A stretch of 64,000 nucleotides of DNA from an uncultured Gammaproteobacteria bacterium (GTDB lineage: Bacteria > Patescibacteriota > Patescibacteriia > Magasanikbacterales > UBA922), in contig CAYUTO010000002.1 in NCBI GenBank assembly GCA_964447765.1, positions 38,955 to 102,954 on the forward strand, in the 5' to 3' direction. Made by a program: the position numbers and the translations under genes. The notes beneath the pieces are model-generated. The model saw nothing but the letters and a program-made list of their open reading frames with translations, was not told the DNA's origin and ran no database searches. This document shows, one piece after another, positions 7,155-59,349 of this stretch (position 1 is the first letter of the stretch; each line of letters opens with the position of its first letter).

Positions 7155-10100
7155 ATGTTTTTTCTCTCCAAAAGAACAAAGAAGCATTCAGTCATCGCTA
7201 TTATTGCGGTGGTTGTAGTAGTGAATGTGCTTGGTTTTAATTTACTCCGTCCAACTCCGGTACGTGCGTTTGTCGACGTAAATCAGGGACTCAGAAACGT
7301 CACTGATAATATTGGTGATTCGCTGTTGGCTGCTGGACTGGGAGCTCTCGTTAATGGAGCATCGTATTTCATGCGAAAAATAGCGTATGATACGGCAAAA
7401 TATATTGCTTCAGGTGGAAAAGGGCAGGGAGCGCTTGCATTCCAGGATGGCTTTGGTAGTTATCTGGGAAATGTTGCAGCAGATAGTGCGTTTGATGCGA
7501 TTGATGAATTAGGAAAACCATTCGGTTTGAATATTTGTCAACCTCCCGATATACGATTACAAATTGGGCTTCAGGTCAGTATTTCAAATATTTTTGCTCA
7601 GGATGGTCCGCAGCCAAGTTGTACATACAATCAGTTTAAGGAAAAATGGGACAATGCACGTGATAGTTTGGTGGGTGATCAAAACTTACTTGAAAACTTC
7701 AATGTATCACTCAAAACTTCTCAAGGAAGTTTAGGAACAGCACTTTCAATTTTGGGAAAAGTAGACAGTATCGTTGCTAAGAGTGAGTTGGGGGCACAGT
7801 TGGAGCGACTTGAGGGTGGAGGATTTAAATCGATTACAGGACTTATTTCAGGTGAAATCAAAACTCCTGCGCAAATAACTCGTGAAGAAGCAACTGGACA
7901 ATTGACCGCAACAGCTCAAACCAAATCGAGTGCCGAACAAATTGCTGGACTCTACGGAGCAGATGCTCTTTCCATTTTCCCCATGGCTTTGTCAGTATTT
8001 GCAAATACTCTCGCAAGTACACTACTTCAAAATGTGCTTGAGAAAGGATTATTACCAACCAAAGGTGATCCTTCATCAGTTGCTGATTTTTATGCTTCCA
8101 CAGTGAACAGAAATCGTCAGATTGCAGAAACTGCATTCTCATACCTTATTGCAGGAATTCCACAAAGACCTTTGACTGCATATGACGTGGTCACTGAGTA
8201 TAGTACCTGTGGTAGTAATCCTGGGCTTAATAATTGCGTCATGGATTCAGGTCTTGCTCAGGCTCTTGATCGTGCTCGACTGGGAACACCGCTTACGATT
8301 GGAGAAGCGATGTCATCGCAAAATAATTTACTTCATGATGATTGGTTGCTGATAGCAGATCATCTCGAGGGTATTGACCCAAGTGTAAGTAAAACAAATC
8401 TTACTAATACTAATTTAGAGTATTGTCACAGTTCTGCATACTGTATTTCTAATGTTGAAAAATTGAGAAAAGCTCGTATTTTACCTTTGGGATTTGAAAT
8501 CGCCGTAATGAAATCTCCTCCAGATAATCCATGGAAATTAGGTGATGTGGTGAGAGGATTTAATACTTGTGATCCGAGTGGTAAGCCGAGCGATGCGTAT
8601 CCATACTGCAAATTGATTGATCCTAATTGGATACTCAAAGCTCCTGAAGCTCGCTGTGAAGCTCGGGTGTCTGGTCCTGAACTGTTGACCGAATCTACTC
8701 CAACGAGACGCGAGGAATGTGTAGATTTTTCAACATGCCTTGAAACAGATGAGAATGGTCAGTGTAAAGGTTTTGGGTATTGCACCAAAGAAGAAAATAT
8801 TTGGAACATGCCTGGTCAAGCCTGTGCCCCACAGTTTAATACGTGTAAAACATATGTTTCTGCTAGTGATGGGAAAATTGCCTCGTATCTTTCGCGTACT
8901 CTCGATGTAGAGTCATGTAGTGCTGATTCAATCGGATGTCGTGCCTATAGTCTGGATAAGGACGGAGATGCGTGGGTAACGTCAGCCGAAGCTGATCCTG
9001 CTACTGCATTTTCGGGACGCACACAAGCAATTCATTTCACGAATATTGCTCAGTGCCCATCGTCATCAGAAGGATGTTCGCTCTTCATGGATCCAACAAT
9101 TAGTGACGCCTCAAGTGATGAAGCCCGTGTATTCCTAAAAAAAGCCCCTGATTATTTACAATGCTATGACAGTGATCTTACAACTTCAGATGTAGTTGAA
9201 TGGCCACAAACTCAGGCTGAAATCGTGAAGCTTGATACACAAAAAGCTGCAGCATGTTCGGCATTTGCTGGAGCGTGTACAGGAGAAGAAGTAGGATGTG
9301 AAGTGTATGCTCCTAAAAATGGGGGAGCATCAGTTACTGGTATTATTGGGGGGAATAGCTGTCCTACTCAATGTGTAGGATACGAAACATTCAAACAAGA
9401 AGCTACTACATTTGAATCTGAGAAATTCCCCTTACATTTTATCGCGTCAAATGCCAGAACTTGTACTAGTTTGCAGGTAGGGTGTGATGAGTTTACTAAT
9501 ATTGGTGTGGCGAGTGAGGGTGGAGAAGCGCTCGAATATTATACTGCACTCAAGCGTTGTGAGCGTCCAAGTGGTGATAATAGTGGAGTATTTTATTCAT
9601 GGGAAGGGTCGGAAAGTCAGGGATACCAATTGAGACGAAACATTTTACTACCAATTACATCATCTGACCGCGACTACATTAGTAGTCATGGATTGAATTA
9701 CAAGTCGGGTGATTCACTTGAATCAGTATTCCCTGTGGGATCACCTGCATACGTAGAAGATCTCAAATCAGCCATGCAATCAAATTATGATCAATGTAAT
9801 CAGGAATCATATAATTTGTTATTGAATAATGTGTTGAATGATTCAAGAGTTGCTGATAATGATTGTCGAGCGCTCTATAATTCAAATGGACAAATTTTTT
9901 ACCGAGTATTCAGAAATACCGTAACCGTATCAAATTCTTGCACACCTCTTCGAAAGACCAATTCAGAATTGATGGTAGACGAAAATATTACTGCGGGAAA
10001 TGGGGGACAAACTCTTTGCGAAGCAAAAGGTGGAGTATGGGGTGCGGGAGAATGTAAACGTTGTGCGGCCGGTGGAACATACGAAGTAAATACTGAAGGA

Positions 10101-13100
10101 ATTGGTTCGTGTATCTATCAATCAATTAAAGCAGAAGCAACGAGTTGTCCTGCTGTCGCAAATGGATGTCGATCATATATTGGAAACACCGGTAATAATT
10201 TACAAATCATTACTACCTTTGGATTTGAGCCATCAGGAACCGGAGCAGCTGCACTTGATACAGCGAATGACGGATGGAGTGAGAATACGGTGGTCCAGGC
10301 AGAAGCACTACAGGTAGGGTTGCATTCTCTCAGGGTAAATGGACAAAGTACCAATTATACGTTTGAATCAGGGACATTACAGACAGGTGCGTGGTATGAG
10401 ATCCGTTTCTCTGCACGTGGTAATGCAGCATTTGGATTATCAATTGGATTTAGTCAGGGCGGGCAAAATATCGGGAATGCCTTTACTTACGACCCGTCGC
10501 TTAATCAGAATGCACCAGCTTCTATTGGTTCACAATGGCAGGAATATCGTGTAGGCCCCGTACAATTCACTGGTAATAGTAATGATCCTGTACAATTATA
10601 CTTTGAGGGATCTGGTGGTTCTCAGTTTTATTTCCTTGATACTATTGAATTTGCAAAAATTGGTGATTCAACAGATGATCATATTTTCCGTATAAAAAAT
10701 TCATGGAGAACTTCTGAAGGATACGAAGTTCCTCTTGCATGTGATTCGCAGCCTAATAATGGGCTTCCTGGTGAATATCTAGGATGTCGTGAGTATACAA
10801 ATAATGGAGTATCGTTCCCATTGACTGGCTTTGATCGACTCTGTCGTGATGAGGCAGTAGGTTGTCGTGCGCTTGTTGACACACAGAATACCGTTGAGGG
10901 AGTTCGTCCAGCAGAAAAACAGGCGTATGGAGTGGTGTGTCGAAAAGCTATTGGAGTAACATCGCCGACTCCATGTTCGGTTACACTGACTGAATCATCT
11001 ACCGTGTCTGCAACATATGGCTGTACCGTATCTCGTGGAGAACGCGAATGTCGGTTACCAAACCCTGTAGTAATTCCTGCACAAGCAGACGATGCGCCAG
11101 TGGTATTCGCGAATCTTCAGCAGGTCGCAGGCACTTGTATTTCGCTCAATGGATCATGTGCAATCAATAATAATGATAAATTAGTTATTGATGAATCTAC
11201 GGTTGTGGTGAAAGAAGATTCTGGTTTGATTTACCTTGCGGCACAAGATCAATTTGTATGTCAGGAAGACAACCTCGCATGTACCCGTGTAGGATTGGAA
11301 ACAAAAAATGTGAATGCAAATACGACGAGTGCATACAGTTATCAAGATGCATTTATCAAAAATGACCCACGTATTTATGCGGATATTTTGTGCTCGGGTG
11401 ACGAAGTAGGTTGTGCAGCATTCAAGAATGATAATTCTCTGGTGTATTTCAAGGATCCAGAAGTAAGTGGAGATACACAGTGTGTATATAAAGATAAGGT
11501 TACCCTGGGTGAAGGATTGGCAGCCCGAACGTACAGTGGATGGTTCAAAGATACAGGGAAATGCGCCGTGAGTAATCAGGAATGCCGGGCTGATGCGGAT
11601 TGTGGAGGGAATGATCGATGTATTGATATTGGTGTAGTACCATGTTACGAAAACTATCTGGATTCAGGTAATGAATACAGTATCTGGTCACAGGGAAGCC
11701 TGCAGTACGAAGGTAATGTGGGTATGTGCGATACTAATAACAATGGCTGTACCGAGCTTATTGATCGTGCGGCAATCACCTCTTCGACACCAAATGGAAA
11801 ATCCTACTATGCACTAATGAATGATCGACTCAAAGAAAATATTGCTCAGTGTGAAGGTAGAGTAAGTCAGAAAGAAGGATGTGTGTTATTCGATGTGACT
11901 GAGAATCCAGATAAAATCTTTGATACTTCAGCATCATATGATGCAAGTCGAGCAGCAACGCCGATTGATAGCCTGGTAAATCCAGTCCGCTCACAAAATA
12001 CAAATGATGCTAATTTTATTCTTAAGGTTGAGAGAGACCGTCAGTGTAGCGAGTGGCTTGCGTGTGGAAGCTCTATTACCGTGACTGATGAAAATGGTAA
12101 TGAACAAGTCTTATGTCAGCAATATATCGCATGTAGTAAATTCAATTCGACTGGAGAGTGTATTCAGCCAGTGAATACCTCGCAGGATAACTCGCAGATG
12201 ACTGAGGAAAAATATATTGCTCGAAGTACTGGCTGGACTGCACCAGAATATTCAGGGTACTCATTCTTTGGTCTGTATAATGCAAGTAATTTTGTTTACT
12301 TATTATTTGAAGGAAAAACAGAGGCATACATGGGGTATGAAATGAGTCATTCGTTTTTCCGTAACGAAGATGTGGGTGCAGGATGTCGTGCTACAGCTAA
12401 CATAGGAGGTGATACTAATTATGTAAAAGCTGATGGAGCCGTGTGTGGATTTGATGCGGGTGGACGATGTTATCGTCAGAGATGTATTTATCCAATCGAA
12501 GGAACGTTTGATTTTACTCCAGCTCCTGGAAATGATGTGGCTACGTCACAGGCAAATGTAGAAAAAATGTTGGTAGAGATGCAGCCAGGAATTTGTAAAT
12601 CATACCCAGAATCAACCAGTCCATTCTCTGTTGAGGTTGCAGTGAAAAATACTAATGAAGAAGTGGATATAAAAAGGAATGATGAATTTACCCGATATGA
12701 TTTTACTGAGAAAAAAGAATTATATGAGCGTGCAAATGTATGTCAGCCTGGTAGTGATTCCACTGATTGTTCGTGTGAATATTTGAAGGTTGAATACAAA
12801 AACGGAACCGTGGATTATTGGGCAACAAAAGATACTGAATTAGTAGCTCCTGGAATTTGTGTGGGGGGAGATAATGATGGAAACCCATGTGCTGCTGCAA
12901 GTGAATGTGGAGTTGGGGGAATGTGCAGTACGGTGAAGCAGAAAGGAACGTTTATCGGACAGCGTGGACTCTGTATCGAATATGATCTTAGTCGACCATT
13001 GGGAACTTCAAAATCTACTGCTCGATTGCACGAATCATTTGCCTGCCTCACCTGGCTTCCAATTCAGGTTTCAGCTTCATCAATTGATTTGAATAATCTC

Positions 13101-16100
13101 AATCCAGCCGCTGGGTACTATCCAGTGTCAAATTACGATTCTCCTCTTGGTGGGGGGCATGCATATTGTACGGAGAGCACGAATCGTGGTGCGGGATATT
13201 ATTTTACTGGTCTTGATGTTGAGGCAAACATAGGACCTTTCGGTACTCCTGGTTTGACTGGCGGTGAGAACATACGATTATGGGGTACGAATGTAGATGA
13301 CTTTACGTATTATGAGGATGTACCAGGTGTTCCAGGTGTCTTTAGTTCGAGTGAAACTATTAATTATGACACAATTGGTACGGTGGGAGGAAAATATAGA
13401 AGTCTGATGGAGTCTGCATCAGAAACAGCGGCACATAGATTGAAGATATATCGCGCAATACAGACGTGGGCGTGGAAACATATTGGAAATTCTGCTCGTA
13501 TTCTTCGGGTGGATGTGGCTGGAGGAGATACACCAAGGTATTATTATCCGAATAATGGTAAAATAAGTGATATAGATAGTAATATTGATATGCTTGGGTT
13601 TGCCCCAGATATTAATAACTCTGATATTACTCATGAAGATACGGGTACGGTAATGCACCCTCCAAGGTTGTTCAGTGCTGCTGGGATTGGGTTGGGCGAA
13701 TACTTAATGAACCCGGGAGATGGTGATTTTGGAATCATCGGAAGTGCTGCATTTTCTCCCGAGGTAAACAATAGTGCGGTACTCGATAAATATGTTGCGA
13801 TCGATAGAGAAGTTGAGAAAAAATTGAATGAAGAAGATATTCAGAGCATGCATTTTGTCCCTATAGCATATCCAGGCGGAGCAGAGGGTGATAATCCTGC
13901 AATGTTGACCAAAGAGTTGGCTATCGATTTCGCTAGTCTACGTTCTCTGCCCCGTGGACAGAATCGGGCATATCAAACTACTGTGCCCGCATACCGTGAT
14001 AATGATAATAATGAAGATCAGATTCGGTATAATACCTACGATGCAGATGAACAAATGGTACAGGTGGCATATCTGCTTGAACGAGGTACCAATGGGGTGA
14101 CTGGAGATGGGCTATTGTCGTACGGCGAGTATAAAGATGCGTCAGGTAGTTATTGGAGTGACTATCTTGGTAAGACAGATAAACATGAACGAACAAAAAT
14201 CCATCGTCGGTATGTATCATTGGTATTTAGTAAAAATGAGACAACATTCACAAGCTTGAATGTGAGTCCAACGCAGATTCCTTCAGGCATGTCTGACCCA
14301 TTTGCTACTAATGGTTGTGAAACTCCATCAAACAATATCTCAAAGAATTGGTTTGCAATTGGTATGGATTTCAATAAAGATGGTGAGTTCCTGGGGTACA
14401 TTTCTCGATGGTGTATGAATACACGAAATGAGGGAGACGAAGCAAATGGTATACGTTTTGCGACGATTGCACATATGCAAGATAGATGTCTCGAGTACAA
14501 TGCTGTTGTTGATAATCAGGTTGCTCTCAGTGGAGATAATAATAAAGCATGGACTGACCGTGTGTGGATTAATAGTACCTATCAGTCCGGATCAAGTTTA
14601 CTTGCAATTCTTAAAGCAGGGGCAACTGGGTTGGCACCATATGGATCACTCCCACAAAGTGTGGCGAGCGCTGAAATTCTCCGAGCAAATCCTACAAAAC
14701 CTGTTCCATCCTACGGTTTCCCGGATTATAATTTTGGTGTGCAATATCAGTGTAGTGGTGGTGATGGTTTTTCGAATGACCCGCGTTCTCTATTTGGTTC
14801 AAAAAATTGTGCACGTCCTATTGGAGAGTCAGAAAGTATTACCAACATCACTTTCGAGATTAGTAGGGATCCAAAAGAAGGGCGAGACAAACTTCGTGAG
14901 TTGTTCATGAAATATTATGAAATGAAGAATTTTGAAGCCATTGGTATTGCTCCAAAAGATATTAATACTTTTAACCCTGAAGTTATTGCAGATTTAGGCG
15001 GTGATGTAGGTGCAATTGGTAATGCAACAAGACCTCCGCAGATCTTCTCGATCAATCCATATACCTGTAGTCAAAGAGGAGGAAATTGTACTGCAGCAGA
15101 AGTAGATGCGTTTACTATAAATTTCAGAAACTTCACCTCTACTGATTATAATAATGATGGTAGTCCTGATGAAGATTCAAATCTGCAGGATGGAATCGAT
15201 CCGATTGTTGCCGAGGGAACGTATTATGCAATTGCAAACTTCTTTGCCTATGCCGATGACAATCGAATGCCTATCAAGAGTGTGAAAGTAGAGTGGGGTG
15301 ATAATTCATTCCAAAATGATAGTCCAGATGGATTGTATAAGAATCGAAAACCATACTGTGGTGCAACTGATAATTTTACGTATAACTATAATGCTAATAC
15401 AAATAGTGGACTAGGGCGCTGTGTAGGTACGCAGATTACCTGTAATAGCAGTGAAGATTGTCGGTATGCAGGAGTGAATGGCGCTGCAGTAGCGTGCGAG
15501 AGTCCAGGCATTCCAACTCCATCTCGTGTAGGTGTGTGTAGGTATACCCCAACAGGCCCTGCAACCGTTCCTGGTGTAGCATGCCAATCGGTCGATGAAT
15601 GTCAGCCGTATGATCCTGCCAACTATGTGACAGAGTGTGTACTACCAAATCAGGGTAGTGATCATAGTGGGGGGCAGTGTCTTTCGACTAGACGTCAAAA
15701 TACAGTATTTACCAATAATGTAGACTGTCAGCAGAGCAGTGTGTGTCCGCTTATAAGTGGTGCTGTTGCTGCATGTGATCTTCCCCCGCTTGCTACTCCT
15801 CCTGCAGGACAACGACATTTCGGAGACGCACCACGCGCATGTAGGAGTCAATACTTCGAATACGCACATACTTATCAGTGTACGAGTGCTGATACAAATG
15901 CGAAGGTCGGAGAGTTACAAAATTCTACAGACGATGGAGATCAAGAGGCGTACAGAAGATTGATCGGTCGGGCAGGAGTGACTCCTGAAACAGATATTTG
16001 TGTATTCATACCAAAGGTCCAGGTAATCGATAACTGGGGATGGTGTAATGCTTCACAAATAGCTGCATTAGAAGAAAATGGGGACTTTACACTTTGTCCA

Positions 16101-16214
16101 AATGATAATACAGGCAAAGGGTGTTACGAAGGTAATAATCAATTATGTAGCAGGTCGGTTAACGCTTATACTCAATATAAAGGTAAGATTATTCTACTAC
16201 CAATAAGTGAATAA
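7155..16214 (+). CDS. Giant (3019 aa) N-terminally membrane-anchored, cysteine-rich surface protein with an internal CBM/lectin-like beta-sandwich domain
   Basis: Single uninterrupted ORF. TM near the N-terminus (IAIIAVVVVVNVLGF). More than 12 copies of a G-C-x-x-[YFL] motif (GCRAYSL, GCEVYAP, GCDEFTN, GCRSYIG, GCREYTN, GCRALVD, GCAAFKN, GCTELID...). The region ...FEPSGTG...AWYEIRFSARGNAAFG...QWQEYRVG...FYFLDTIEF resembles CBM4_9 / galactose-binding-like domains. Confidence 0.7.
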   Translation: MFFLSKRTKKHSVIAIIAVVVVVNVLGFNLLRPTPVRAFVDVNQGLRNVTDNIGDSLLAAGLGALVNGASYFMRKIAYDTAKYIASGGKGQGALAFQDGFGSYLGNVAADSAFDAIDELGKPFGLNICQPPDIRLQIGLQVSISNIFAQDGPQPSCTYNQFKEKWDNARDSLVGDQNLLENFNVSLKTSQGSLGTALSILGKVDSIVAKSELGAQLERLEGGGFKSITGLISGEIKTPAQITREEATGQLTATAQTKSSAEQIAGLYGADALSIFPMALSVFANTLASTLLQNVLEKGLLPTKGDPSSVADFYASTVNRNRQIAETAFSYLIAGIPQRPLTAYDVVTEYSTCGSNPGLNNCVMDSGLAQALDRARLGTPLTIGEAMSSQNNLLHDDWLLIADHLEGIDPSVSKTNLTNTNLEYCHSSAYCISNVEKLRKARILPLGFEIAVMKSPPDNPWKLGDVVRGFNTCDPSGKPSDAYPYCKLIDPNWILKAPEARCEARVSGPELLTESTPTRREECVDFSTCLETDENGQCKGFGYCTKEENIWNMPGQACAPQFNTCKTYVSASDGKIASYLSRTLDVESCSADSIGCRAYSLDKDGDAWVTSAEADPATAFSGRTQAIHFTNIAQCPSSSEGCSLFMDPTISDASSDEARVFLKKAPDYLQCYDSDLTTSDVVEWPQTQAEIVKLDTQKAAACSAFAGACTGEEVGCEVYAPKNGGASVTGIIGGNSCPTQCVGYETFKQEATTFESEKFPLHFIASNARTCTSLQVGCDEFTNIGVASEGGEALEYYTALKRCERPSGDNSGVFYSWEGSESQGYQLRRNILLPITSSDRDYISSHGLNYKSGDSLESVFPVGSPAYVEDLKSAMQSNYDQCNQESYNLLLNNVLNDSRVADNDCRALYNSNGQIFYRVFRNTVTVSNSCTPLRKTNSELMVDENITAGNGGQTLCEAKGGVWGAGECKRCAAGGTYEVNTEGIGSCIYQSIKAEATSCPAVANGCRSYIGNTGNNLQIITTFGFEPSGTGAAALDTANDGWSENTVVQAEALQVGLHSLRVNGQSTNYTFESGTLQTGAWYEIRFSARGNAAFGLSIGFSQGGQNIGNAFTYDPSLNQNAPASIGSQWQEYRVGPVQFTGNSNDPVQLYFEGSGGSQFYFLDTIEFAKIGDSTDDHIFRIKNSWRTSEGYEVPLACDSQPNNGLPGEYLGCREYTNNGVSFPLTGFDRLCRDEAVGCRALVDTQNTVEGVRPAEKQAYGVVCRKAIGVTSPTPCSVTLTESSTVSATYGCTVSRGERECRLPNPVVIPAQADDAPVVFANLQQVAGTCISLNGSCAINNNDKLVIDESTVVVKEDSGLIYLAAQDQFVCQEDNLACTRVGLETKNVNANTTSAYSYQDAFIKNDPRIYADILCSGDEVGCAAFKNDNSLVYFKDPEVSGDTQCVYKDKVTLGEGLAARTYSGWFKDTGKCAVSNQECRADADCGGNDRCIDIGVVPCYENYLDSGNEYSIWSQGSLQYEGNVGMCDTNNNGCTELIDRAAITSSTPNGKSYYALMNDRLKENIAQCEGRVSQKEGCVLFDVTENPDKIFDTSASYDASRAATPIDSLVNPVRSQNTNDANFILKVERDRQCSEWLACGSSITVTDENGNEQVLCQQYIACSKFNSTGECIQPVNTSQDNSQMTEEKYIARSTGWTAPEYSGYSFFGLYNASNFVYLLFEGKTEAYMGYEMSHSFFRNEDVGAGCRATANIGGDTNYVKADGAVCGFDAGGRCYRQRCIYPIEGTFDFTPAPGNDVATSQANVEKMLVEMQPGICKSYPESTSPFSVEVAVKNTNEEVDIKRNDEFTRYDFTEKKELYERANVCQPGSDSTDCSCEYLKVEYKNGTVDYWATKDTELVAPGICVGGDNDGNPCAAASECGVGGMCSTVKQKGTFIGQRGLCIEYDLSRPLGTSKSTARLHESFACLTWLPIQVSASSIDLNNLNPAAGYYPVSNYDSPLGGGHAYCTESTNRGAGYYFTGLDVEANIGPFGTPGLTGGENIRLWGTNVDDFTYYEDVPGVPGVFSSSETINYDTIGTVGGKYRSLMESASETAAHRLKIYRAIQTWAWKHIGNSARILRVDVAGGDTPRYYYPNNGKISDIDSNIDMLGFAPDINNSDITHEDTGTVMHPPRLFSAAGIGLGEYLMNPGDGDFGIIGSAAFSPEVNNSAVLDKYVAIDREVEKKLNEEDIQSMHFVPIAYPGGAEGDNPAMLTKELAIDFASLRSLPRGQNRAYQTTVPAYRDNDNNEDQIRYNTYDADEQMVQVAYLLERGTNGVTGDGLLSYGEYKDASGSYWSDYLGKTDKHERTKIHRRYVSLVFSKNETTFTSLNVSPTQIPSGMSDPFATNGCETPSNNISKNWFAIGMDFNKDGEFLGYISRWCMNTRNEGDEANGIRFATIAHMQDRCLEYNAVVDNQVALSGDNNKAWTDRVWINSTYQSGSSLLAILKAGATGLAPYGSLPQSVASAEILRANPTKPVPSYGFPDYNFGVQYQCSGGDGFSNDPRSLFGSKNCARPIGESESITNITFEISRDPKEGRDKLRELFMKYYEMKNFEAIGIAPKDINTFNPEVIADLGGDVGAIGNATRPPQIFSINPYTCSQRGGNCTAAEVDAFTINFRNFTSTDYNNDGSPDEDSNLQDGIDPIVAEGTYYAIANFFAYADDNRMPIKSVKVEWGDNSFQNDSPDGLYKNRKPYCGATDNFTYNYNANTNSGLGRCVGTQITCNSSEDCRYAGVNGAAVACESPGIPTPSRVGVCRYTPTGPATVPGVACQSVDECQPYDPANYVTECVLPNQGSDHSGGQCLSTRRQNTVFTNNVDCQQSSVCPLISGAVAACDLPPLATPPAGQRHFGDAPRACRSQYFEYAHTYQCTSADTNAKVGELQNSTDDGDQEAYRRLIGRAGVTPETDICVFIPKVQVIDNWGWCNASQIAALEENGDFTLCPNDNTGKGCYEGNNQLCSRSVNAYTQYKGKIILLPISE

Positions 16215-16370: not shown

Positions 16371-16889
16371 TCACCGGTAGAACGTGGTGAGCAGCGAAGA
16401 GCCTGGCAGGTCAGCTCGGACATCCTTTCGAATGAGGGCCTCTCCTTCGATGAAGAGATAGCTTGTATATTCGTGGATGCCTGAAGCCCATTGACTCGAC
16501 AGCGGTAGCGTCTTGCCGAAGAAGCGTTGTGTGCCGCAGCCGTCGCAGGCGAAGATGAGTTCGCACTGGTCGCCAGCAGCAGAGACCTGGACCGTGATCT
16601 CGAGTCGATCACCGTCGATCAGGTTGTTGTCGCTCTCGCACCACCAGATTCCCCGTAGGTCGAAGAGATCTTCGCAGAGGTCCTCGGCAGTGAGTGGTGG
16701 TGTGAACGTGTCATTTGTGGCGGTATCTGGGACCGCCGTGTAGGTGTCGGGCTGGTGGGGATCATCTCCCTTACCAGTGTCCGACGTATCGGTGGTAGTG
16801 ATTGGACCAGGTTCGACACCTGGATCCGAAGAGTCGCAAGCCGCCATCGCGAGGGCGGCAGCGATGACGGCAATCATCCTGCAGAGCAT
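16371..16889 (-). CDS. Lipoprotein (GC-rich island A); signal peptide with lipobox ALAMAAC
   Basis: MLCRMIAVIAAALAMAACDSS..., T/D/P-rich linker, 4 Cys. GAGGAG SD sits 8 nt upstream of the ATG. Local GC is far above the flanks. Confidence 0.6.
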   Translation of the reverse strand: MLCRMIAVIAAALAMAACDSSDPGVEPGPITTTDTSDTGKGDDPHQPDTYTAVPDTATNDTFTPPLTAEDLCEDLFDLRGIWWCESDNNLIDGDRLEITVQVSAAGDQCELIFACDGCGTQRFFGKTLPLSSQWASGIHEYTSYLFIEGEALIRKDVRADLPGSSLLTTFYR

Positions 16890-17158
16890 ATGCTCATCTC
16901 CTCAACAGTGGAAGCTTTCACTTAGCCGGAACCTACCGACAGAGTAATCACTCCAACATATCAAACCAATAAGATCGAGCTTATAAGGGCCTAATATGTT
17001 GGAGCGACGATACGATTTACGAAGGTACATTCTATGGCGATTAGACCATTTTTTTTGGGTTTTGTCAAGTTTTTATGGAATTCCTCCATAGGGCTTGAAA
17101 AAGAGTAGTATAATTGGTACACTCAACCTATCTTTTCTATAGATAAAATACATACAAT

Positions 17159-27936: not shown

Positions 27937-28020
27937 TTCTCATTAGTGCCCAGAGAGAGAATCGAACTCTCACGATATTGCTATCACGGGATTTTGAGTC
28001 CCGCGTGTCTACCAATTCCA
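27937..28020 (-). tRNA. tRNA-Leu (anticodon CAA), type II with a long variable arm
   Basis: Reverse complement GCCCAGATGGTGGAATTGGTAGACACGCGGGACTCAAAATCCCGTGATAGCAATATCGTGAGAGTTCGATTCTCTCTCTGGGCA; anticodon loop CTCAAAA. Confidence 0.8.
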
Positions 28021-28116
28021 CCATCTGGGCATTTTTCACACCATTGGTGAAGATGAGTATAGCCTTTACTCGTACACTTGTCAACGATATGCTATACTGT
28101 ATGAAGCAAAATACCT

Positions 28117-30094: not shown

Positions 30095-31603
30095 TTGAAT
30101 AATATGCCGAAAAGAAATAGAAATGAGACAATTGATGGGTTGATCGAGCTCGTCCGTGGGTATAATCCCAAGGCTGATTTTGATATGATCCGCCTGGCGT
30201 ATGATTTTGCAGAAGAAGCTCACCGCGGGCAGACCAGAAAATCAGGAGAGCCTTATATTACACATCCGCTATCAGCAGCATATATTTTGGCAGATATCCG
30301 TATTGATCCGGTTATTGTGATTGCAACCCTACTTCATGATGTGCCAGAAGATACGTCGCGCACACTTGAAGATGTTGAGAAGAATTTCGGATCAGAAGTT
30401 TCGTCAATGGTTCGAGGTATTACGAAGCTCGGAAAATTGAAATACCGTGGTGTCGAGCGTTATATTGAAAATCTTCGCAAAATGTTTGTTGCGATGGCTG
30501 AGGATATTCGAGTGATGATTATCAAATTCGCTGACCGTATTCATAATCTGGAAACACTGGATGCACTTCCTCCTCAAAAAAGATATCGAATCGCGCTTGA
30601 GAGTCTCGAGATTTATGCTCCGATTGCCAATAGACTAGGAATGGATGATATCAAGGGTCAACTGGAGGATTTATCTTTTAAACATGTCTATCCAAAAGAA
30701 TATGAGCGAGTGAAGAAGATTCGTGATGAGCGTCTTCAGGGAAAAGAAAAATATGTTGCAACTATTATCAAGAGAGCTAATGAAGAATTGATCAAAGCGG
30801 GGATTACACCTATTTCAACCGAGGGTAGAAATAAACGTCTCTATAGTTTGTATCGCAAACTTATTCGTAAAAATAACGATATCAATAAAGTGTATGATCT
30901 TGTTGCGATTAGAATTGTCGTAAAAACCGTAGGCGAATGTTATGCAACATTGGGAATTTTGCACAACGTGTGGACTCCGATGAAAGGAAGAATCAAAGAC
31001 TATATCTCTCAACCAAAACCCAATGATTATCAGTCACTCCATACAAGTGTGTTTGGGGACGAAGGAGAGGTAGTGGAATTTCAAATTCGAACCGAGGAAA
31101 TGGATGAAAATGCTGAGTTTGGTATTGCTGCACACTGGCATTATACCGAGAGTGGTAGTCGTATGCCGTCACGAGAAATAAAATGGGTAAAGGAACTGGC
31201 AGAAATTCAGAAAGATATTTTGAACAAATTATCAGACCTTGAAGAAATCAAAGTTGATTTTCTCCAAAGCCGTATCTTTGTCTTTACTCCAAAAGGAGAT
31301 GTGATTGATCTGCCCGAAGGAGCAACTTCGATTGATTTTGCGTACCATATTCACTCTGAAATTGGAAACAAATGTACTGCAGCTATTGTGAACGATAAAA
31401 TGGTTTCCCTTGATACCGAACTGAATAATGGAGATGTGGTCGAAATTGTGACTGATAAGAATCGCAAACTCCCGAGCCAAGATTGGTTGAAAATTGTAAA
31501 GACACATAGTGCGAGAGAGCATATTCGAAACGCGTTGAAGCAAGACGGAAAAATGACGATTAGAAAACTTTTGAAGTCAGTCATGCCGGGAAAAAAAGGA
31601 TAA
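30095..31603 (+). CDS. rel: Small bifunctional (p)ppGpp synthetase/hydrolase of the RelA/SpoT family (HD + synthetase + TGS; no ACT domain)
   Basis: HD motif LLHDVPEDT. Synthetase region (YISQPKPNDYQSLHTSV, RTEEMDENAEFGIAAHW). TGS (IFVFTPKGDVIDLPEGATSIDFAYHIH). 502 aa. Confidence 0.85.
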   Translation: MNNMPKRNRNETIDGLIELVRGYNPKADFDMIRLAYDFAEEAHRGQTRKSGEPYITHPLSAAYILADIRIDPVIVIATLLHDVPEDTSRTLEDVEKNFGSEVSSMVRGITKLGKLKYRGVERYIENLRKMFVAMAEDIRVMIIKFADRIHNLETLDALPPQKRYRIALESLEIYAPIANRLGMDDIKGQLEDLSFKHVYPKEYERVKKIRDERLQGKEKYVATIIKRANEELIKAGITPISTEGRNKRLYSLYRKLIRKNNDINKVYDLVAIRIVVKTVGECYATLGILHNVWTPMKGRIKDYISQPKPNDYQSLHTSVFGDEGEVVEFQIRTEEMDENAEFGIAAHWHYTESGSRMPSREIKWVKELAEIQKDILNKLSDLEEIKVDFLQSRIFVFTPKGDVIDLPEGATSIDFAYHIHSEIGNKCTAAIVNDKMVSLDTELNNGDVVEIVTDKNRKLPSQDWLKIVKTHSAREHIRNALKQDGKMTIRKLLKSVMPGKKG

Positions 31604-31646
31604 GTATATTTATATAAAATGCAGTGTGCGCTATAAAAATAGCGAA

Positions 31647-31679
31647 GCCCTGTCACGATGAATCGTGCAGGGCTTTTTA
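31647..31679 (+). terminator. Bidirectional rho-independent terminator (rel on plus; small-membrane-protein operon on minus)
   Basis: gccctgtcacga-tga-atcgtgcagggc, then ttttt. Confidence 0.7.
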
Positions 31680-31696
31680 CTTCAGCCATCTCCTCC

Positions 31697-31972
31697 TCAG
31701 TGATGGCTGGTATGTGTGTGTTTCTTTTTTTCGTCCTTCTTCTTGTCCTCCAGTTCAGAAATCTTCTCGAAGGGGTACATGATCGCTTCCCCTATACTCG
31801 GTGTGAAACCGACTGTGACTAGGAAGAACATTCCTAGAACGAAGTTTACATCAAAGAAACAATATGTGATGTACAGCGCCACGATTCCGAACCATGGGAA
31901 CTTGGCCCCTTCTTTCTTCTTCTTTTTCTTCTTCTTGGCTTTGGAGCCGTGACCGTGTGCGTCGTGAGACAA
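31697..31972 (-). CDS. Small 2-TM membrane protein with His-rich termini and a K8 tract (island C, gene 3)
   Basis: MSHDAHGHGSKAKKKKKKKKEG...HTHTSHH. TTG start preceded by GGAGGtgtcta. GC is elevated relative to the flanks. Confidence 0.5.
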   Translation of the reverse strand: MSHDAHGHGSKAKKKKKKKKEGAKFPWFGIVALYITYCFFDVNFVLGMFFLVTVGFTPSIGEAIMYPFEKISELEDKKKDEKKKHTHTSHH

Positions 31973-31982
31973 TAGACACCTC

Positions 31983-32228
31983 CTATGGAGTGGGTGTGTT
32001 CCTTGATTGGTACTCTCTCCAGAGCCAGACGCAGAGCCAGCCGAGGAGAGTGAATACTAGGATACACAGATTGATGAATGCCTGGATCATCCACGCCACG
32101 ATGGCGAAGGTGATGAATACACAGAATCCGATTGGTCCAGAGTTCAACGCGAGGTTGAGCAATATGACGAACATCCCTATCTTGATCCATGGAATATCCA
32201 TCTGTATACGTTCTTTTTTACGGAACAC
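31983..32228 (-). CDS. Small 2-TM membrane protein (island C, gene 2)
   Basis: Hydrophobic helices FVILLNLALNSGPIGFCVFITFAIVAWMI and LCILVFTLLGWLCVWLW. GTG start with AAGGAG 5 nt upstream. The ORF track starts 2 codons earlier. Confidence 0.45.
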   Translation of the reverse strand: MFRKKERIQMDIPWIKIGMFVILLNLALNSGPIGFCVFITFAIVAWMIQAFINLCILVFTLLGWLCVWLWREYQSRNTPTP

Positions 32229-32239
32229 AGACACTCCTT

Positions 32240-32464
32240 CTATTTTGATTTGAGAGTCTTCTCACGTTTGGATATTACTGCACCTAAGAGGACTATGAGC
32301 GGGGAGATGAGGAACTTGGCGATGCCTCGTAGTGTCGGCGGATGATTGTGAAACATTCCGGCGGACAGAGAGTTGGCGAAGTCCATCATGCCTAGCATCA
32401 CAGAACAGATGATGCATGTAATCAGGTAACCTATGATCAAAAGGACAATGACACCCGTCATCAT
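32240..32464 (-). CDS. Small 2-TM membrane protein (island C, gene 1)
   Basis: MMTGVIVLLIIGYLITCIICSVMLGMM...LISPLIVLLGAVIS. AAGGAGAcggat-ATG SD. Confidence 0.5.
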   Translation of the reverse strand: MMTGVIVLLIIGYLITCIICSVMLGMMDFANSLSAGMFHNHPPTLRGIAKFLISPLIVLLGAVISKREKTLKSK

Positions 32465-32530
32465 ATCCGTCTCCTTGGTTGTTTGGGTGACCCCACAGTA
32501 TAGCATATTTGAGTGATTTTGTCAATACAA

Positions 32531-32551
32531 AAGAGCCATATTTTGGCTCTG
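32531..32551 (-). terminator. Rho-independent terminator downstream of topA
   Basis: On the minus strand: agagcc-aaaatat-ggctct then ttttgtatt. Confidence 0.6.
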
Positions 32552-32608
32552 TTGAGATAAAAAATAAATCCCTGAACGGATCAGAGATTTATGATATGAA
32601 GTATATAT

Positions 32609-34900
32609 TTAGGTAACGGCTTTCTTGACTCTTTTTTTGAACCCTCCACGTCTCGGTCTACTTGGCGCTTCAGTTAATAGTTTCTGGCAATCTTCGAGTG
32701 TAAGATTCTGAGGCTCGGTATCTTTGGGAATTTTGGCATTTGTTTTTGTTGCAGTATCGGTGATGTATGGCCCATAGCGTCCATTCAATACTTGCACCGT
32801 TGATCCTTCAAATAGTTTAATGGTCTTTTCATCATCTGCTTTTTTCTTTGCTGCGATCACTTCATTCGCTTCTTCGAGCGTGATCGTATACGGGTCTTTA
32901 TCTTTGATTGAAATAAATTTTGAACCATGTTTTACATACGGACCAAAACGTCCAACATTTGCAATAATATCATTTCCTTCGGCATCCACGCCGAGTGTGC
33001 GGGGGAGATCAAACAGTTTTACCGCGTCTTCAATCGTAATTTCCTGAAGAGTTTGTCCTGGCCTTAGAGATGCAAACGCTGGTTTTTCTTCACTTTCGGC
33101 TTCACCTTTTTGTACAAAGGCTCCAAATCTTCCAATGCGACCATAAATTGGTTTACCACTTTTGGGGTCTGTACCAATGAGATGCAATTTCACGGTATCT
33201 TCTTTTGAAAGGTCTTCAGTTTTTTTGGTAATCAAATCATGAAATGGGTGATAGAAGGTCGCGATAATTGGTTGCCAATCTTTGGTACCTTCTGCGATTT
33301 CATCTAGATTTTCTTCCATCTGTGCCGTAAATTTGTAATCAACAATGTCTGGAAAATGTTCTACCAATAGATCACTTACCAAAAATGCAATATCATTTGG
33401 TTTCAATCGTTTACTGTCGTCTCGCTCTACGTACCCACGAGCTTCAATTGTTCCAATGGTTGGGGCATACGTTGAAGGTCGACCAATACCGTATTCTTCG
33501 AGTGCTTTGACGAGTGTCGCGTCAGAATACCTCGCTGGTGGCTCGGTAAAATGTTGTTCAGGGAGAACACTTTCGAGTTTCAGCGGATCATTTTCTTTGA
33601 GTTCAGGTAAAATCTCTTCTTTGATTTCCTGAGGATAGAGAGCCAGCCAGCCTGGGAAAATCATGGTTTGTCCGCTTGCTCTGAACGTATGATGGGTGCC
33701 TGAAATATCAATCGTCGTTTTATTAAGACGCGCTTCTGCCATCTGTGTCGCGACTGCGCGATTGTATATTAGCTGATAGAGCTTGTGTTGTTGTGGGCTC
33801 AAATAAGCTCTGATGCTATCAGGAGTGCGATTAGGGTCAGTAGGGCGGATTGCTTCGTGTGCTTCCTGGGCTCCTTTTGAAGTATTTTTAAATTTGCGTG
33901 GAGCATCGAGCGTATATTCTGTACCAAAATTTTTAGCTACCATTTCTTTGGTTTCAGCCAAAAATTTATCAGAAAGATTGAGAGAATCAGTACGCATATA
34001 GGTAATAAGACCTACTTCACCCTCATCTCCAACTTTCATACCTTCGTACAATTGTTGTGCCAATCGCATGGTTTGTTTTGCAGAATACCCGAGTTTATGA
34101 CTCGCTTGCTGCTGCATTGTTGAGGTAGTAAATGGAGCTGGGGGAGTACGCTTGGTTTCTTTTTTGGTAATTGATGAAATGGTGTATGATTCTTTTTGTA
34201 TTGCCTCAACAATTCCCTCAGCTTGTGCCTGATTTGCAATATCAAATTTGTCTAATTTTTTATCATCAATTGCACAGAGTTCAGAAGTGATGGCGACTCC
34301 TTTGTCTGCAAACATTCCTTTGATACTCCAATACTCCTGCGTTTTGAACGCCGTTCGTTCACGTTCACGTTCTACGACGAGTCGTACGGCGACAGATTGT
34401 ACACGCCCTGCAGACAATCCTCGAGCTACTTTTTTCCACAAAAAAGGAGAAAGCTCATACCCAACTAGTCGATCGAGAATACGTCGTGCTTGCTGCGCAT
34501 CGACGAGTTTCAAGTCAATCGTACGAGGATTTTTGATGGCCTCTTCAATCGCGTGTTTGGTAATTTCATGAAACACGATACGTTCTGCTTTTGCAGGGTC
34601 GATATCGAATAGTTCTGCCAAATGCCAGGAGATGGCTTCTCCTTCCCGGTCTTCGTCAGTTGCAAATATGATTCGCTTGTTTGCTTTTGCAAGTTTTTTG
34701 AGCTTATCTGCCTGGGGTTTGCGATCCTTGGAGACCGTATAGGTAGGTAGAAAAGTGCCCCCATCAATATCAATCCCCATTTTACTTTTTGGAAGATCAC
34801 GAACATGGCCGAATGATGATTCGACAATATATCCTTTTCCCAAAAAACGAGAAATTGTTTTGGCTTTGGTAGGTGACTCGACGATTACTAATATTCCCAT
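32609..34900 (-). CDS. topA: DNA topoisomerase I
   Basis: MGILVIVESPTKAKTISRFLGKGY is a TOPRIM domain. Active-site Tyr region present. C-terminal repeats without Zn ribbons. 763 aa. Confidence 0.9.
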   Translation of the reverse strand: MGILVIVESPTKAKTISRFLGKGYIVESSFGHVRDLPKSKMGIDIDGGTFLPTYTVSKDRKPQADKLKKLAKANKRIIFATDEDREGEAISWHLAELFDIDPAKAERIVFHEITKHAIEEAIKNPRTIDLKLVDAQQARRILDRLVGYELSPFLWKKVARGLSAGRVQSVAVRLVVERERERTAFKTQEYWSIKGMFADKGVAITSELCAIDDKKLDKFDIANQAQAEGIVEAIQKESYTISSITKKETKRTPPAPFTTSTMQQQASHKLGYSAKQTMRLAQQLYEGMKVGDEGEVGLITYMRTDSLNLSDKFLAETKEMVAKNFGTEYTLDAPRKFKNTSKGAQEAHEAIRPTDPNRTPDSIRAYLSPQQHKLYQLIYNRAVATQMAEARLNKTTIDISGTHHTFRASGQTMIFPGWLALYPQEIKEEILPELKENDPLKLESVLPEQHFTEPPARYSDATLVKALEEYGIGRPSTYAPTIGTIEARGYVERDDSKRLKPNDIAFLVSDLLVEHFPDIVDYKFTAQMEENLDEIAEGTKDWQPIIATFYHPFHDLITKKTEDLSKEDTVKLHLIGTDPKSGKPIYGRIGRFGAFVQKGEAESEEKPAFASLRPGQTLQEITIEDAVKLFDLPRTLGVDAEGNDIIANVGRFGPYVKHGSKFISIKDKDPYTITLEEANEVIAAKKKADDEKTIKLFEGSTVQVLNGRYGPYITDTATKTNAKIPKDTEPQNLTLEDCQKLLTEAPSRPRRGGFKKRVKKAVT

Positions 34901-45815: not shown

Positions 45816-45854
45816 CCAGTTTGCATTGACAAACTGGGTTTTTTTGTGTATACT
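45816..45854 (+). promoter_or_regulatory. recG rho-independent terminator whose loop contains the -35 box of a consensus promoter TTGACA-17-TATACT driving the island-D gene
   Basis: ccagtttg-cattga-caaactgg then gttttttt. TTGACA at ~45826 and TATACT at ~45849. Confidence 0.65.
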
Positions 45855-45919: not shown

Positions 45920-46405
45920 TTGAAAGAATCGGTTCTCAATCGGATCAACAAGATGTCCTATGAGGAGGGTGCCAACCTCCTCACGAACCTCCGCCTGAAC
46001 GCGATCCCTCCGTACCGTCTCCACACCCACCCCGTCGAGTTCACGATCCACACCTTCGGCGTCGACTGCGAGGCCAGGGTCAAGTCGGACACGATGGATA
46101 CGCGTCGTGCCATGAGTGATCTCGGCATGCCGCGGGTCCAGGAGATCGCCAACACGATCTACTTGCACCCGACGCTCGGGGAGGATGCTCTGAACGCGAT
46201 GCTCGACGGCAAACGTGTCGTGATCAACGTCCAGCGTCACCCGAAGACGGAGACGAAGCCCGCGATGCAGGCGGTTCCGATGGCGCCGGTCGAGGTCATC
46301 GCCTCGGTGCTCGACGACGTGCCGGAGGACAAGAGCAAGAAGAAGGTCGAGAACAAGTCTCGGCGCAAGCAGCAGCCCGCGGTCTCCGCGGAATTGCTCC
46401 ACTAG
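45920..46405 (+). CDS. Hypothetical protein (GC-rich island D, ~65% GC). TTG start with AGGAG SD.
   Basis: ORF track 161 aa. AGGAG sits 7 nt upstream of TTG. Opposite-strand ORF 45794..46492 is Arg-rich, typical of an antisense artefact in GC-rich DNA. Confidence 0.55.
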   Translation: MKESVLNRINKMSYEEGANLLTNLRLNAIPPYRLHTHPVEFTIHTFGVDCEARVKSDTMDTRRAMSDLGMPRVQEIANTIYLHPTLGEDALNAMLDGKRVVINVQRHPKTETKPAMQAVPMAPVEVIASVLDDVPEDKSKKKVENKSRRKQQPAVSAELLH

Positions 46406-58706: not shown

Positions 58707-58964
58707 CTACGGAGCAGATCGGACTAAGCCGACAAACTCTATAAACGGCAAGTGGTCGCAAGTGATCAAGTCCTGTTCGGACTCGGTCAGCTCGACAAAC
58801 CGCTTTGCAAGTACAGTGTCTAAGGTCATCTGAATTCGCTGATGCATTCGCACCCAGATCGCTCGGAGTGCTATTACGTCAGTCGAATCCGGCAAGAAAA
58901 TCGTCTCGGCCAATGCCTCGGAGATGATTGTCTGCCAAACGCTTTCTTCGCTAGAGTTACTCAT
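58707..58964 (-). CDS. Hypothetical small protein co-transcribed with the TraR/DksA-like gene (island E)
   Basis: MSNSSEESVWQTIISEALAETIFLPDS... AGGAGagagcatc-ATG SD. The ORF track extends it to 59078 in another frame, overlapping the zinc-finger gene. Confidence 0.4.
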   Translation of the reverse strand: MSNSSEESVWQTIISEALAETIFLPDSTDVIALRAIWVRMHQRIQMTLDTVLAKRFVELTESEQDLITCDHLPFIEFVGLVRSAP

Positions 58965-59269
58965 GATGCTCTCTCCTGGTCGGACTTTTCCAAATCGGAA
59001 AGGCATGAGACACAGAAACGAGTCTCCGGACGGTGCATCAATCTCTTGAATGAGATCGCTTCGTCGCACCGCTCGCAAACGCCGATGGTCCCGAATTCGA
59101 GCCGCTTCAAGGCGGCCTCCACTTCCGGGATCTCAATCGTCGTCTTGTGGGTACGGAGCTGCTCCAGCATGCTGGTGTCTCTTAAGGAGACCCAAACAGC
59201 CATAAGCTTGTCGCTTAGGCGGTTCTTGAGCTTCTGGAGCTCGACTTCGGTCATGATGTGCGTGGACAA
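58961..59269 (-). CDS. TraR/DksA family C4-type zinc-finger protein
   Basis: CERC-x17-CVSC spacing (CERCDEAISFKRLMHRPETRFCVSCL). AGAGGTGA SD. 102 aa. About 52% GC versus ~40% in the flanks. Confidence 0.65.
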   Translation of the reverse strand: MSTHIMTEVELQKLKNRLSDKLMAVWVSLRDTSMLEQLRTHKTTIEIPEVEAALKRLEFGTIGVCERCDEAISFKRLMHRPETRFCVSCLSDLEKSDQERAS

Positions 59270-59313
59270 AATTCACCTCTTTCGTGTAAAGGAACAAGTT
59301 AAGACAACAAAAG

Positions 59314-59349
59314 AATATATCATAAAATGACTATATTGTCAATAGTCAT
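59314..59349 (-). promoter_or_regulatory. Consensus promoter TTGACA-17-TATATT whose -35 lies in the centre of a 23-bp palindrome (atgactatattgtcaatagtcat). Promoter plus operator of the TraR/DksA-like gene.
   Basis: Read directly: palindrome 59327-59349; on the minus strand TTGACA at 59342-59337 and TATATT at 59319-59314. Confidence 0.6.

Follow-up and report, generated by a model that had tools for sequence, protein, structure and literature searches.

The stretch of DNA analysed here, 64,000 nucleotides long and called the window below (positions 38,955 to 102,954 of contig CAYUTO010000002.1), belongs to Candidatus Magasanikbacteria (Patescibacteria, also known as the Candidate Phyla Radiation, CPR), its topA product being 85–94% identical to the topA of several metagenome-assembled genomes placed there. 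Within it, topA (32609-34900, minus strand) and a RelA/SpoT-type gene with HD, RelA_SpoT and TGS domains (30095-31603, plus strand; relA below) run towards each other with about 1 kb between them, and this spacer is the site of an operon of three small genes for membrane proteins, orfA, orfB and orfC. Reading along the minus strand, the order of features in the spacer is two hairpins, a promoter, a 32-nt leader, orfA, orfB, orfC (together the cassette) and a bidirectional hairpin.

Each of the three open reading frames (ORFs) lies on the minus strand behind a strong Shine-Dalgarno (SD) sequence, and the stop codons of the first two abut or overlap the SD of the gene that follows. The first, orfA (32240..32464), encodes 74 amino acids (aa) from ATG 32464 to TAG 32240. 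The list of ORFs places its start at ATG 32506, which is disfavoured because it sits within the -10 box of the promoter; the start linked to an SD is ATG 32464, and the 74-aa form is that of a public gene call, P0006. For orfB (31983..32228; 81 aa, ending at TAG 31983) a first GTG (32234) overlaps the gene's own SD, AAGGAG (32239-32234), and the second, GTG 32228, is taken as the start since homologues begin MFRKKER. The TTG start of orfC (31697..31972; 91 aa) is at 31972, preceded by the SD GGAGG (31983-31979), and its stop codon is TGA 31697.

An initial annotation of the window had reported three consecutive minus-strand ORFs of 74-91 aa, with the SDs AAGGAGA, AAGGAG and GGAGG before ATG, GTG and TTG respectively, placed between the terminator of topA and a bidirectional terminator, the third protein having HDAHGHG, a run of eight lysines (K8) and HTHTSHH. 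That description was accurate in nearly every detail: all of these elements are present, and the operon is delimited by the two hairpins after topA and by the hairpin at 31675-31645. It had also given each protein two hydrophobic helices, which stands for A and C; in B there is one stretch of 60 hydrophobic residues that, judged from its predicted structure, could hold either two or three spans.

Coding constraint and gene turnover among relatives

The ORFs are conserved in related sequence, with orthologues at the same topA/relA spacer in 10 related contigs (designated L with a number). Pairwise Nei-Gojobori estimates of the ratio of nonsynonymous to synonymous divergence (dN/dS) are 0.45 for A (against L081), 0.21-0.52 for B and 0.23-0.35 for C, and substitutions are most frequent at the third codon position, less so at the first and least at the second. 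That gene callers missed some of the ORFs, and that long antisense ORFs are likewise open in the region, might be taken to mean that these are chance frames in a non-coding spacer, a by-product of local composition. The substitution pattern effectively refutes this, and frames, SDs and start positions are kept in many relatives despite a dS of 0.5-1; the antisense ORFs stay open because the cassette's bias towards G and C at third codon positions leaves few TTA, CTA and TCA codons. The chance explanation is hardly credible. The comparison shows orfA, orfB and orfC to be genuine coding genes that are under purifying selection and evolve fast.

Between the window and L001, dS is 0.90 for C, 0.75 for topA and 0.60 for relA; in the comparison with L081 the cassette genes have values of 0.53-0.91 and relA has 0.43. 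This similarity of cassette and flank dS argues that the genes are old residents of the locus that have mostly been inherited vertically. Two other histories, recent horizontal gene transfer and cassette alleles much older than the flanks (trans-species polymorphism), were ruled out on the same ground of comparable dS. In contrast, dN is 0.14-0.31 in the cassette and 0.00-0.03 in the flanks, i.e. 10-25 times higher, such fast change under constraint being as expected of small hydrophobic proteins.

What the spacer contains varies between sister genomes. L081 has A-B-C together with a fourth small membrane ORF, L084 has A-D-C, L020 has B and C, L001 only C, L003 only B, L011 and L005 have longer C-type variants, and L002 has two other small membrane ORFs, E and D. 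L082 and L083 also hold orthologues in the same spacer, and in L016 the spacer is 92 bp long and empty. These arrangements show that A, B and C have been gained, lost or swapped as independent modules, and the topA/relA spacer is a hotspot of gene turnover. The families are absent in more distant Magasanikbacteria that have relA after topA on the same strand. In the topA-relA spacers of two such distant Magasanikbacteria are unrelated ORFs with a high GC content at third codon positions (GC3), one for a 198-aa membrane protein (L013 8599-9195, minus; GC3 0.62) and one for a 337-aa protein (L014 8702-9715, minus; GC3 0.67), so that the spacer may be a hotspot for insertions throughout the lineage.

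Signals for expression

After topA comes a first intrinsic terminator (32564..32592, minus), a 12-bp stem followed by a T-run; pairing of its stem is kept in relatives while the stem sequence varies. The second hairpin, AGAGCCAAAATATGGCTCT (32532..32550, minus), is directly upstream of the -35 box of the operon promoter. Folded together, the two give -25.3 kcal/mol (z -6.3). The second is a palindrome, AGAGCCA-N5-TGGCTCT, abutting the -35 box and near-identical in most occupied spacers of relatives (compared at matching positions in L001, L002, L005, L020, L081, L083 and L084), where some variants disrupt pairing without compensation. It may be either a terminator or insulator, or a palindromic operator, and its pattern of variation is more suggestive of a site for protein binding than of a terminator alone.

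The promoter (32497..32525, minus) is of the sigma-70 type, TTGACA-17 nt-TATACT with an extended -10 TG, and agrees with the consensus at 11 of 12 positions. Its 29-mer is unique in the window and recurs with 0-4 changes in 8 related contigs (L001, L002, L003, L005, L020, L081, L083 and L084). The copy in L011 has diverged, with about 9 changes; there is none in L016, with its empty spacer, and none was found on L082, a fragment of 637 bp. L020 (1330-2150) has two copies of the 29-mer, one near 1330 and one near 1744, and its orfB and orfC homologues are separate promoter-ORF-terminator units; in the window the two genes are fused as one operon. Elsewhere in the window, a tRNA gene (27947-28030, minus) is preceded by a TTGACA-17-TATACT promoter (28056-28084, minus), and this shows the hexamer pair of the cassette promoter to be of the organism's native strong type. 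The 5′ untranslated region of the operon (32465..32496, minus), with the SD AAGGAGA (32476-32470), has a sequence, GTCACCCAAACAACCAAGGAG, common to the window, L081, L084 and L002; it gave no Rfam match and no significant fold.

At the other end, a hairpin with a 13-bp stem (31645..31675) acts in both directions as predicted terminator of the operon and of the convergent relA/spoT-like gene (z -3.1, minus strand; z -4.7, plus strand). Relatives have kept the sequence of this hairpin, which recurs in them as a 'SPARFVVTGLRYF' pseudo-translation. Rfam revealed no riboswitch or small RNA in the cassette, and a match to the PyrR site was dismissed as chance, scoring 30.5 bits where the gathering score is 54. 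With a promoter, SDs and a terminator of its own, the set is indeed the operon that the initial annotation had proposed, and a self-contained one; its signals suggest that it is probably expressed strongly and constitutively.

Base composition and similar promoters in the window

The elevated GC content that had been ascribed to the cassette is correct but modest in bulk: 0.46 against 0.417, at the 94th percentile among 850-bp windows. What truly stands out is GC3, which is 0.60 for orfA, 0.64 for orfB and 0.62 for orfC, against 0.33 ± 0.03 in 34 long ORFs of the window, none of them above 0.385. All cassette ORFs of the relatives share this anomaly, whatever their family, with GC3 0.52-0.74 against 0.29-0.39 for the topA and relA of the same genome. 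The shift is towards NNC over NNT codons (for Phe, TTC at 0.89 against 0.28; for Ile, ATC at 0.58 against 0.23), and also towards AAG over AAA and towards C- and G-ending four-fold codons. As it persists across lineages at a dS of about 1–2, something maintains it.

Promoter matches at 11 or more of the 12 consensus positions number six in the window: three stand before GC3-rich small ORFs, one before a tRNA and two within genes. The three GC3-rich cases are the operon itself, an ORF at 45920-46405 and a gene of DksA/TraR type. This pairing of promoter and composition fits either codon bias linked to expression or a pool of promoter-bearing foreign mini-cassettes. The ORF at 45920-46405 (plus; 161 aa; no Pfam match) is directly behind the terminator of recG and has its own promoter at 45826-45854, with 11 of 12 consensus positions; its GC3 is 0.87 and its first-position GC 0.60, the stretch around it is the most GC-rich 850 bp of the window (GC 0.56), and it is either a foreign gene or a case of extreme codon bias. 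The gene for the DksA/TraR-type zinc-finger protein (within 58961-59342, minus; 102 aa; Pfam E 2.4e-9; GC3 0.74) has a promoter at 59342-59314, also with 11 of 12 consensus positions and with an extended -10. Upstream of a lipoprotein-like 172-aa ORF (MLCRMIAVIAAALAMAACDSS...; within 16371-17068, minus; GC3 0.66; no Pfam match) is a promoter-like site, TTGACA...TCTAAT, at 17068-17040.

The three proteins

The orfA product is predicted to be a hairpin of two transmembrane (TM) segments with a basic C-terminus. Invariant among the 3 sequences available are C17-x-x-C20, in TM1, and D28/F29 and F38-H39-N40, in the predicted outer loop. That of orfB has a basic N-terminus, an MDIPW motif, the 60-residue hydrophobic core, a GP turn and three conserved Cys; its AlphaFold2 (AF2) model, with a predicted local distance difference test score (pLDDT) of 75, has helices at 12-29 and 32-77.

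For orfC, hydropathy and charge maps agree with the AF2 model (pLDDT 62) on a helical hairpin at 27-56, a long charged helix at 58-83 and the HTHTSHH end; the N-terminal 26 residues, MSHDAHGHGSKAKKKKKKKKEGAKFP, are disordered in the model. Nine of the 91 residues are His and every one of them is in the first 8 or the last 7 positions. Among 8 homologues M1, H6, E62, H85 and H87 are invariant, and the orfC-type N-terminus begins M-[S/A]-H and continues in H/G repeats (an H..H.GH pattern). A juxtamembrane motif, MYPF-E/Q-K, is conserved, and the C-terminal HxHxxHH motif (31700..31720, minus) ends 6 of the 8 homologues. The C-terminal tail is extended to (SDHHHDGHH)x2 in L011 and to a 60-residue H/D/G tail in L005. 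The K8 tract, encoded by (AAG)3AAA(AAG)3AAA (31913..31936, minus), corresponds to a run of 3-8 lysines among homologues, in which richness in K is kept and length is not; this variation in length points to the K8 of the window being a local expansion of an (AAG)n run. With K-rich segments on either side of the orfC hairpin, the positive-inside rule would place both termini in the cytoplasm.

Comparison of orfB with orfC by hhalign gives a probability of 68%, a weak link that runs via the K-rich-[F/I]PW-hairpin part, and the C-type protein of L005 contains a B-like 'EIPWHVIKIG' that bridges the motifs of both. Because of this link and this bridging protein, orfB is probably a distant, diverged paralogue of orfC without the His ends. 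No paralogues of orfA, orfB or orfC were found elsewhere in the 64-kb window.

Searches for related proteins

A word-indexed protein search of 5.8 billion clusters returned 1-3 proteins per ORF, these being members of the clade, and when 1.84 billion representatives were searched exhaustively by HMMER for the orfC profile, five matches had E<1e-3. Of the five, P0001, P0007 (in L084) and P0010 (in L011) are from the clade; P0008 and P0009 were rejected as low-complexity false positives. In a collection of 15 billion proteins orfB was not present in any of three forms tested, and orfC was there from a Logan contig only; public gene calls appear to miss both genes. Profiles of orfC and orfB found nothing in JGI metagenome contigs or IMG/VR, and tblastn found no match among INPHARED phages. 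Scans of the three proteins and of the family alignments against Pfam, PHROGs and NCBIfam gave only sub-threshold, inconsistent matches, and there was no PADLOC match for families A-F at E<=1.

In a sequence profile search of the PDB there was no match for orfB, and for orfC there were only weak ones, e.g. AcrZ (5ng5_M; E 0.025, insignificant), where the C-terminal end of the chain is opposite the His-rich C-terminus of orfC; the weak PDB matches, that to AcrZ included, look to be driven by histidine tags. Foldseek comparison of the AF2 models of orfC and orfB with the PDB and BFVD gave nothing below E 2. Nothing specific was found in the literature on small membrane proteins of CPR bacteria or on His-rich small membrane proteins. 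The three families are new and restricted to a narrow sub-clade of Magasanikbacteria; operons for small accessory membrane proteins with His/Cys motifs are, as a kind, nothing new.

Possible functions

As far as sequence can tell, the motifs of orfC and orfA are the only chemically specific clues to function. The conserved His motifs of orfC, its expandable H/D/G tails, and the CxxC in a TM segment of orfA together with its loop His point to the binding or relay of metal. Metal binding by the third protein had already been suggested, and with its His ends conserved (H6, H85 and H87 invariant in 8 homologues) the suggestion is a reasonable one. The tentative reading, in which we have low to moderate confidence, is that A, B and C are abundant accessory membrane proteins that handle a divalent metal. 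In this scheme orfC would insert as an N-in/C-in helical hairpin, bringing its His motifs and poly-lysine to the cytoplasmic face of the membrane, and the His motifs would bind a divalent transition metal (Ni/Zn/Co/Cu class). In orfA the CxxC on one face of TM1 and the His and Asp of the outer loop could hold a thiophilic metal inside the membrane or pass it on, and the set as a whole would serve accessory metal handling, be it uptake, buffering or hand-over.

Two known systems offer parallels. MerE is a 2-TM mercury importer in which a Cys pair in mid-TM1 and a periplasmic His are required for metal transport, and a TM1 Cys pair and a periplasmic His are likewise required in MerF (PMC5715351). 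MerE, MerF and MerT have two or three TM segments in about 80-116 aa, and orfA, 74 aa long with two TM segments and a loop His, is alike in these respects. Its TM1 Cys pair is CxxC, invariant in a small sample of 3 sequences, whereas the Cys spacing of the Mer proteins is CC or CPC. None of the 3 orfA members matched the Mer Pfam families at E<=10, no merR, merP or merA was found within about 10 kb on either side, and the setting is one of housekeeping genes in a CPR genome instead of a mer operon. The parallel for orfC is CbtB, the small subunit of the predicted cobalt transporter CbtAB (Pfam PF09489), though a literature search did not confirm this. CbtB is tiny and membrane-anchored, with a His-rich tail thought to capture divalent metal, and to that extent comparable; it has one TM segment and is encoded beside CbtA behind a B12 riboswitch, whereas in orfC there are two TM segments and each terminus carries His motifs. 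No Pfam CbtB match was found, and neither a multi-TM partner or CbtA in the operon nor a cobalamin riboswitch. As none of these tests established family membership, MerE/MerF and CbtB are analogies only.

Several points weigh against metal handling. Homology to metal-handling families is lacking, with nothing consistent in Pfam even at E<=10 and nothing in NCBIfam, and there is no metal regulator, transporter, chaperone or riboswitch nearby. The families B, D, E, F and G of the hotspot are without His motifs, so metal is not an obvious theme of the locus taken as a whole. The invariance of the orfA CxxC is weak evidence, since just 3 sequences were compared and about 42% of their columns do not vary; the topology of orfC comes solely from hydropathy, the positive-inside reading and a low-confidence AF2 model (pLDDT 62), and the expression of the operon solely from its sequence signals. 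Moreover, anionic lipids, nucleic acids or polyphosphate are also possible ligands of tails rich in His and Lys.

The turnover at the spacer could instead reflect conflict, with each gene giving independent immunity against a membrane-targeting bacteriocin or toxin, or excluding phage, and the spacer being an orphan protective array that turns over in an arms race. Presence/absence and module swapping between sister genomes, with single genes standing alone, would accord with this, as would a dN 10-25 times the flank level, orphan families limited to one clade, a strong and constitutive-looking promoter and the atypical third-position composition. However, there is no PADLOC match, and among the surrounding genes (der, pth, dprA, a Mur ligase, topA, relA, parB and parA) there are none for a bacteriocin or for export or processing; the only bacteriocin-type match, to NCBIfam bfi2_fam, is at E 0.28 with 10.6 bits against a cut-off of 350, and the likeness to bacteriocin-immunity peptides that had been proposed is accordingly left without a family match. 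The dN/dS values are well below 1 and give no hint of positive selection at the level of the gene, the genomes differ at species level (flank dS 0.4-2) so that turnover is not exceptionally fast, and the conserved His motifs would be left unexplained. All told, a role in conflict seems rather unlikely. The size of 74-91 aa and the hairpin architecture are also typical of accessory or regulatory subunits that tune a transporter or ATPase in the manner of AcrZ, KdpF, MgtS and CydX, here for larger membrane machines encoded elsewhere, and the juxtamembrane motifs MYPF-E/Q-K in C and MDIPW in B are conserved. AcrZ, KdpF and MgtS share with the operon their size class, a hairpin or single-helix architecture and the tendency to be missed in annotation, but they are encoded or co-regulated with a defined partner and none is evident in the operon or its neighbourhood. 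The AcrZ match is the insignificant, tag-like one described above, and the genes are dispensable in close relatives (L016 is empty), where the subunit of a core machine would be expected to persist; such a role is distinctly improbable.

Membrane permeabilisation, by a holin/antiholin set or by something like a type I toxin, was among the likenesses first proposed. The look of orfC is indeed that of a class II holin, small, with two TM segments, N-in/C-in topology and a highly charged C-terminus, features that class II holins and Phage_holin_3_6 proteins share with the cassette, and there are weak matches of orfB to Phage_holin_3_6 (PF07332; E 0.022; 15.2 bits where the gathering score is 28.4; only 2 of the 5 family members match) and of orfA to a holin/anti-holin PHROG (5871; E 0.28), with no holin match for orfC. 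These matches are far below threshold, and the general description of a holin as a small protein with at least one TM domain and a highly charged C-terminal tail, which hydropathy and charge maps bear out here, is generic and does not discriminate. Against it, no phage homologues appeared in IMG/VR, INPHARED, PHROGs or BFVD; no lysin or endolysin, prophage or phage gene is among the neighbouring genes; and the locus is chromosomal, conserved and retained under purifying selection across species. Type I toxins (Hok, TisB, Ibs, Fst) have fewer than 60 aa, one TM segment, an antisense RNA and restrained translation, and were rejected as a model: the ORFs here have 74-91 aa and at least two TM segments, their SDs match the consensus and their promoter is strong. 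Rfam gave no antitoxin RNA for the operon, and no antisense promoter that convinces was found there. The extended -10 promoter, with 11 of 12 consensus positions, and the strong SDs are a misfit with a lethal product, and the occurrence of single genes alone in relatives speaks against obligate toxin/antidote or holin/antiholin pairs. Neither the phage-like nor the toxin-like likeness of the initial annotation held up, and permeabilisation is very unlikely. The remaining alternative takes up the composition data and is about as doubtful as a subunit role: the operon would be one of a hitherto undescribed class of short Magasanikbacteria units, each with a consensus promoter, one or more orphan GC3-shifted small ORFs and a terminator, that occupy spacers behind the terminators of housekeeping genes and are exchanged, duplicated or lost between species. 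Their small membrane proteins would then make up a fast-diversifying repertoire at the surface or in the membrane, connected with the host-dependent, episymbiotic way of life of CPR bacteria and not with housekeeping metal physiology.

Bacteria of the CPR have tiny genomes, and a large share of their genes encode small hypothetical membrane proteins without a known role. The locus is a well-delimited case, with three orphan families that have clear signals for expression and are all under purifying selection, and the variants of the spacer (empty, with one gene, or with different combinations) are a natural 'experiment'. If the proteins are ordinary accessory membrane peptides, this is a modest addition to annotation. 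What is likely to surprise a specialist is the persistent two-fold shift of GC3 accompanied by consensus promoters, and the modular turnover at a single spacer. If general, the link between consensus promoter and GC3-rich small ORF could serve in practice to pick out genes of high expression or recent acquisition in the genomes of uncultured CPR bacteria.

Other features

Repeats of att or integron type were looked for on either side of the ORFs, and none was found. The window also has an ORF of 3019 aa (7155-16214, plus), about 15 kb from the cassette.

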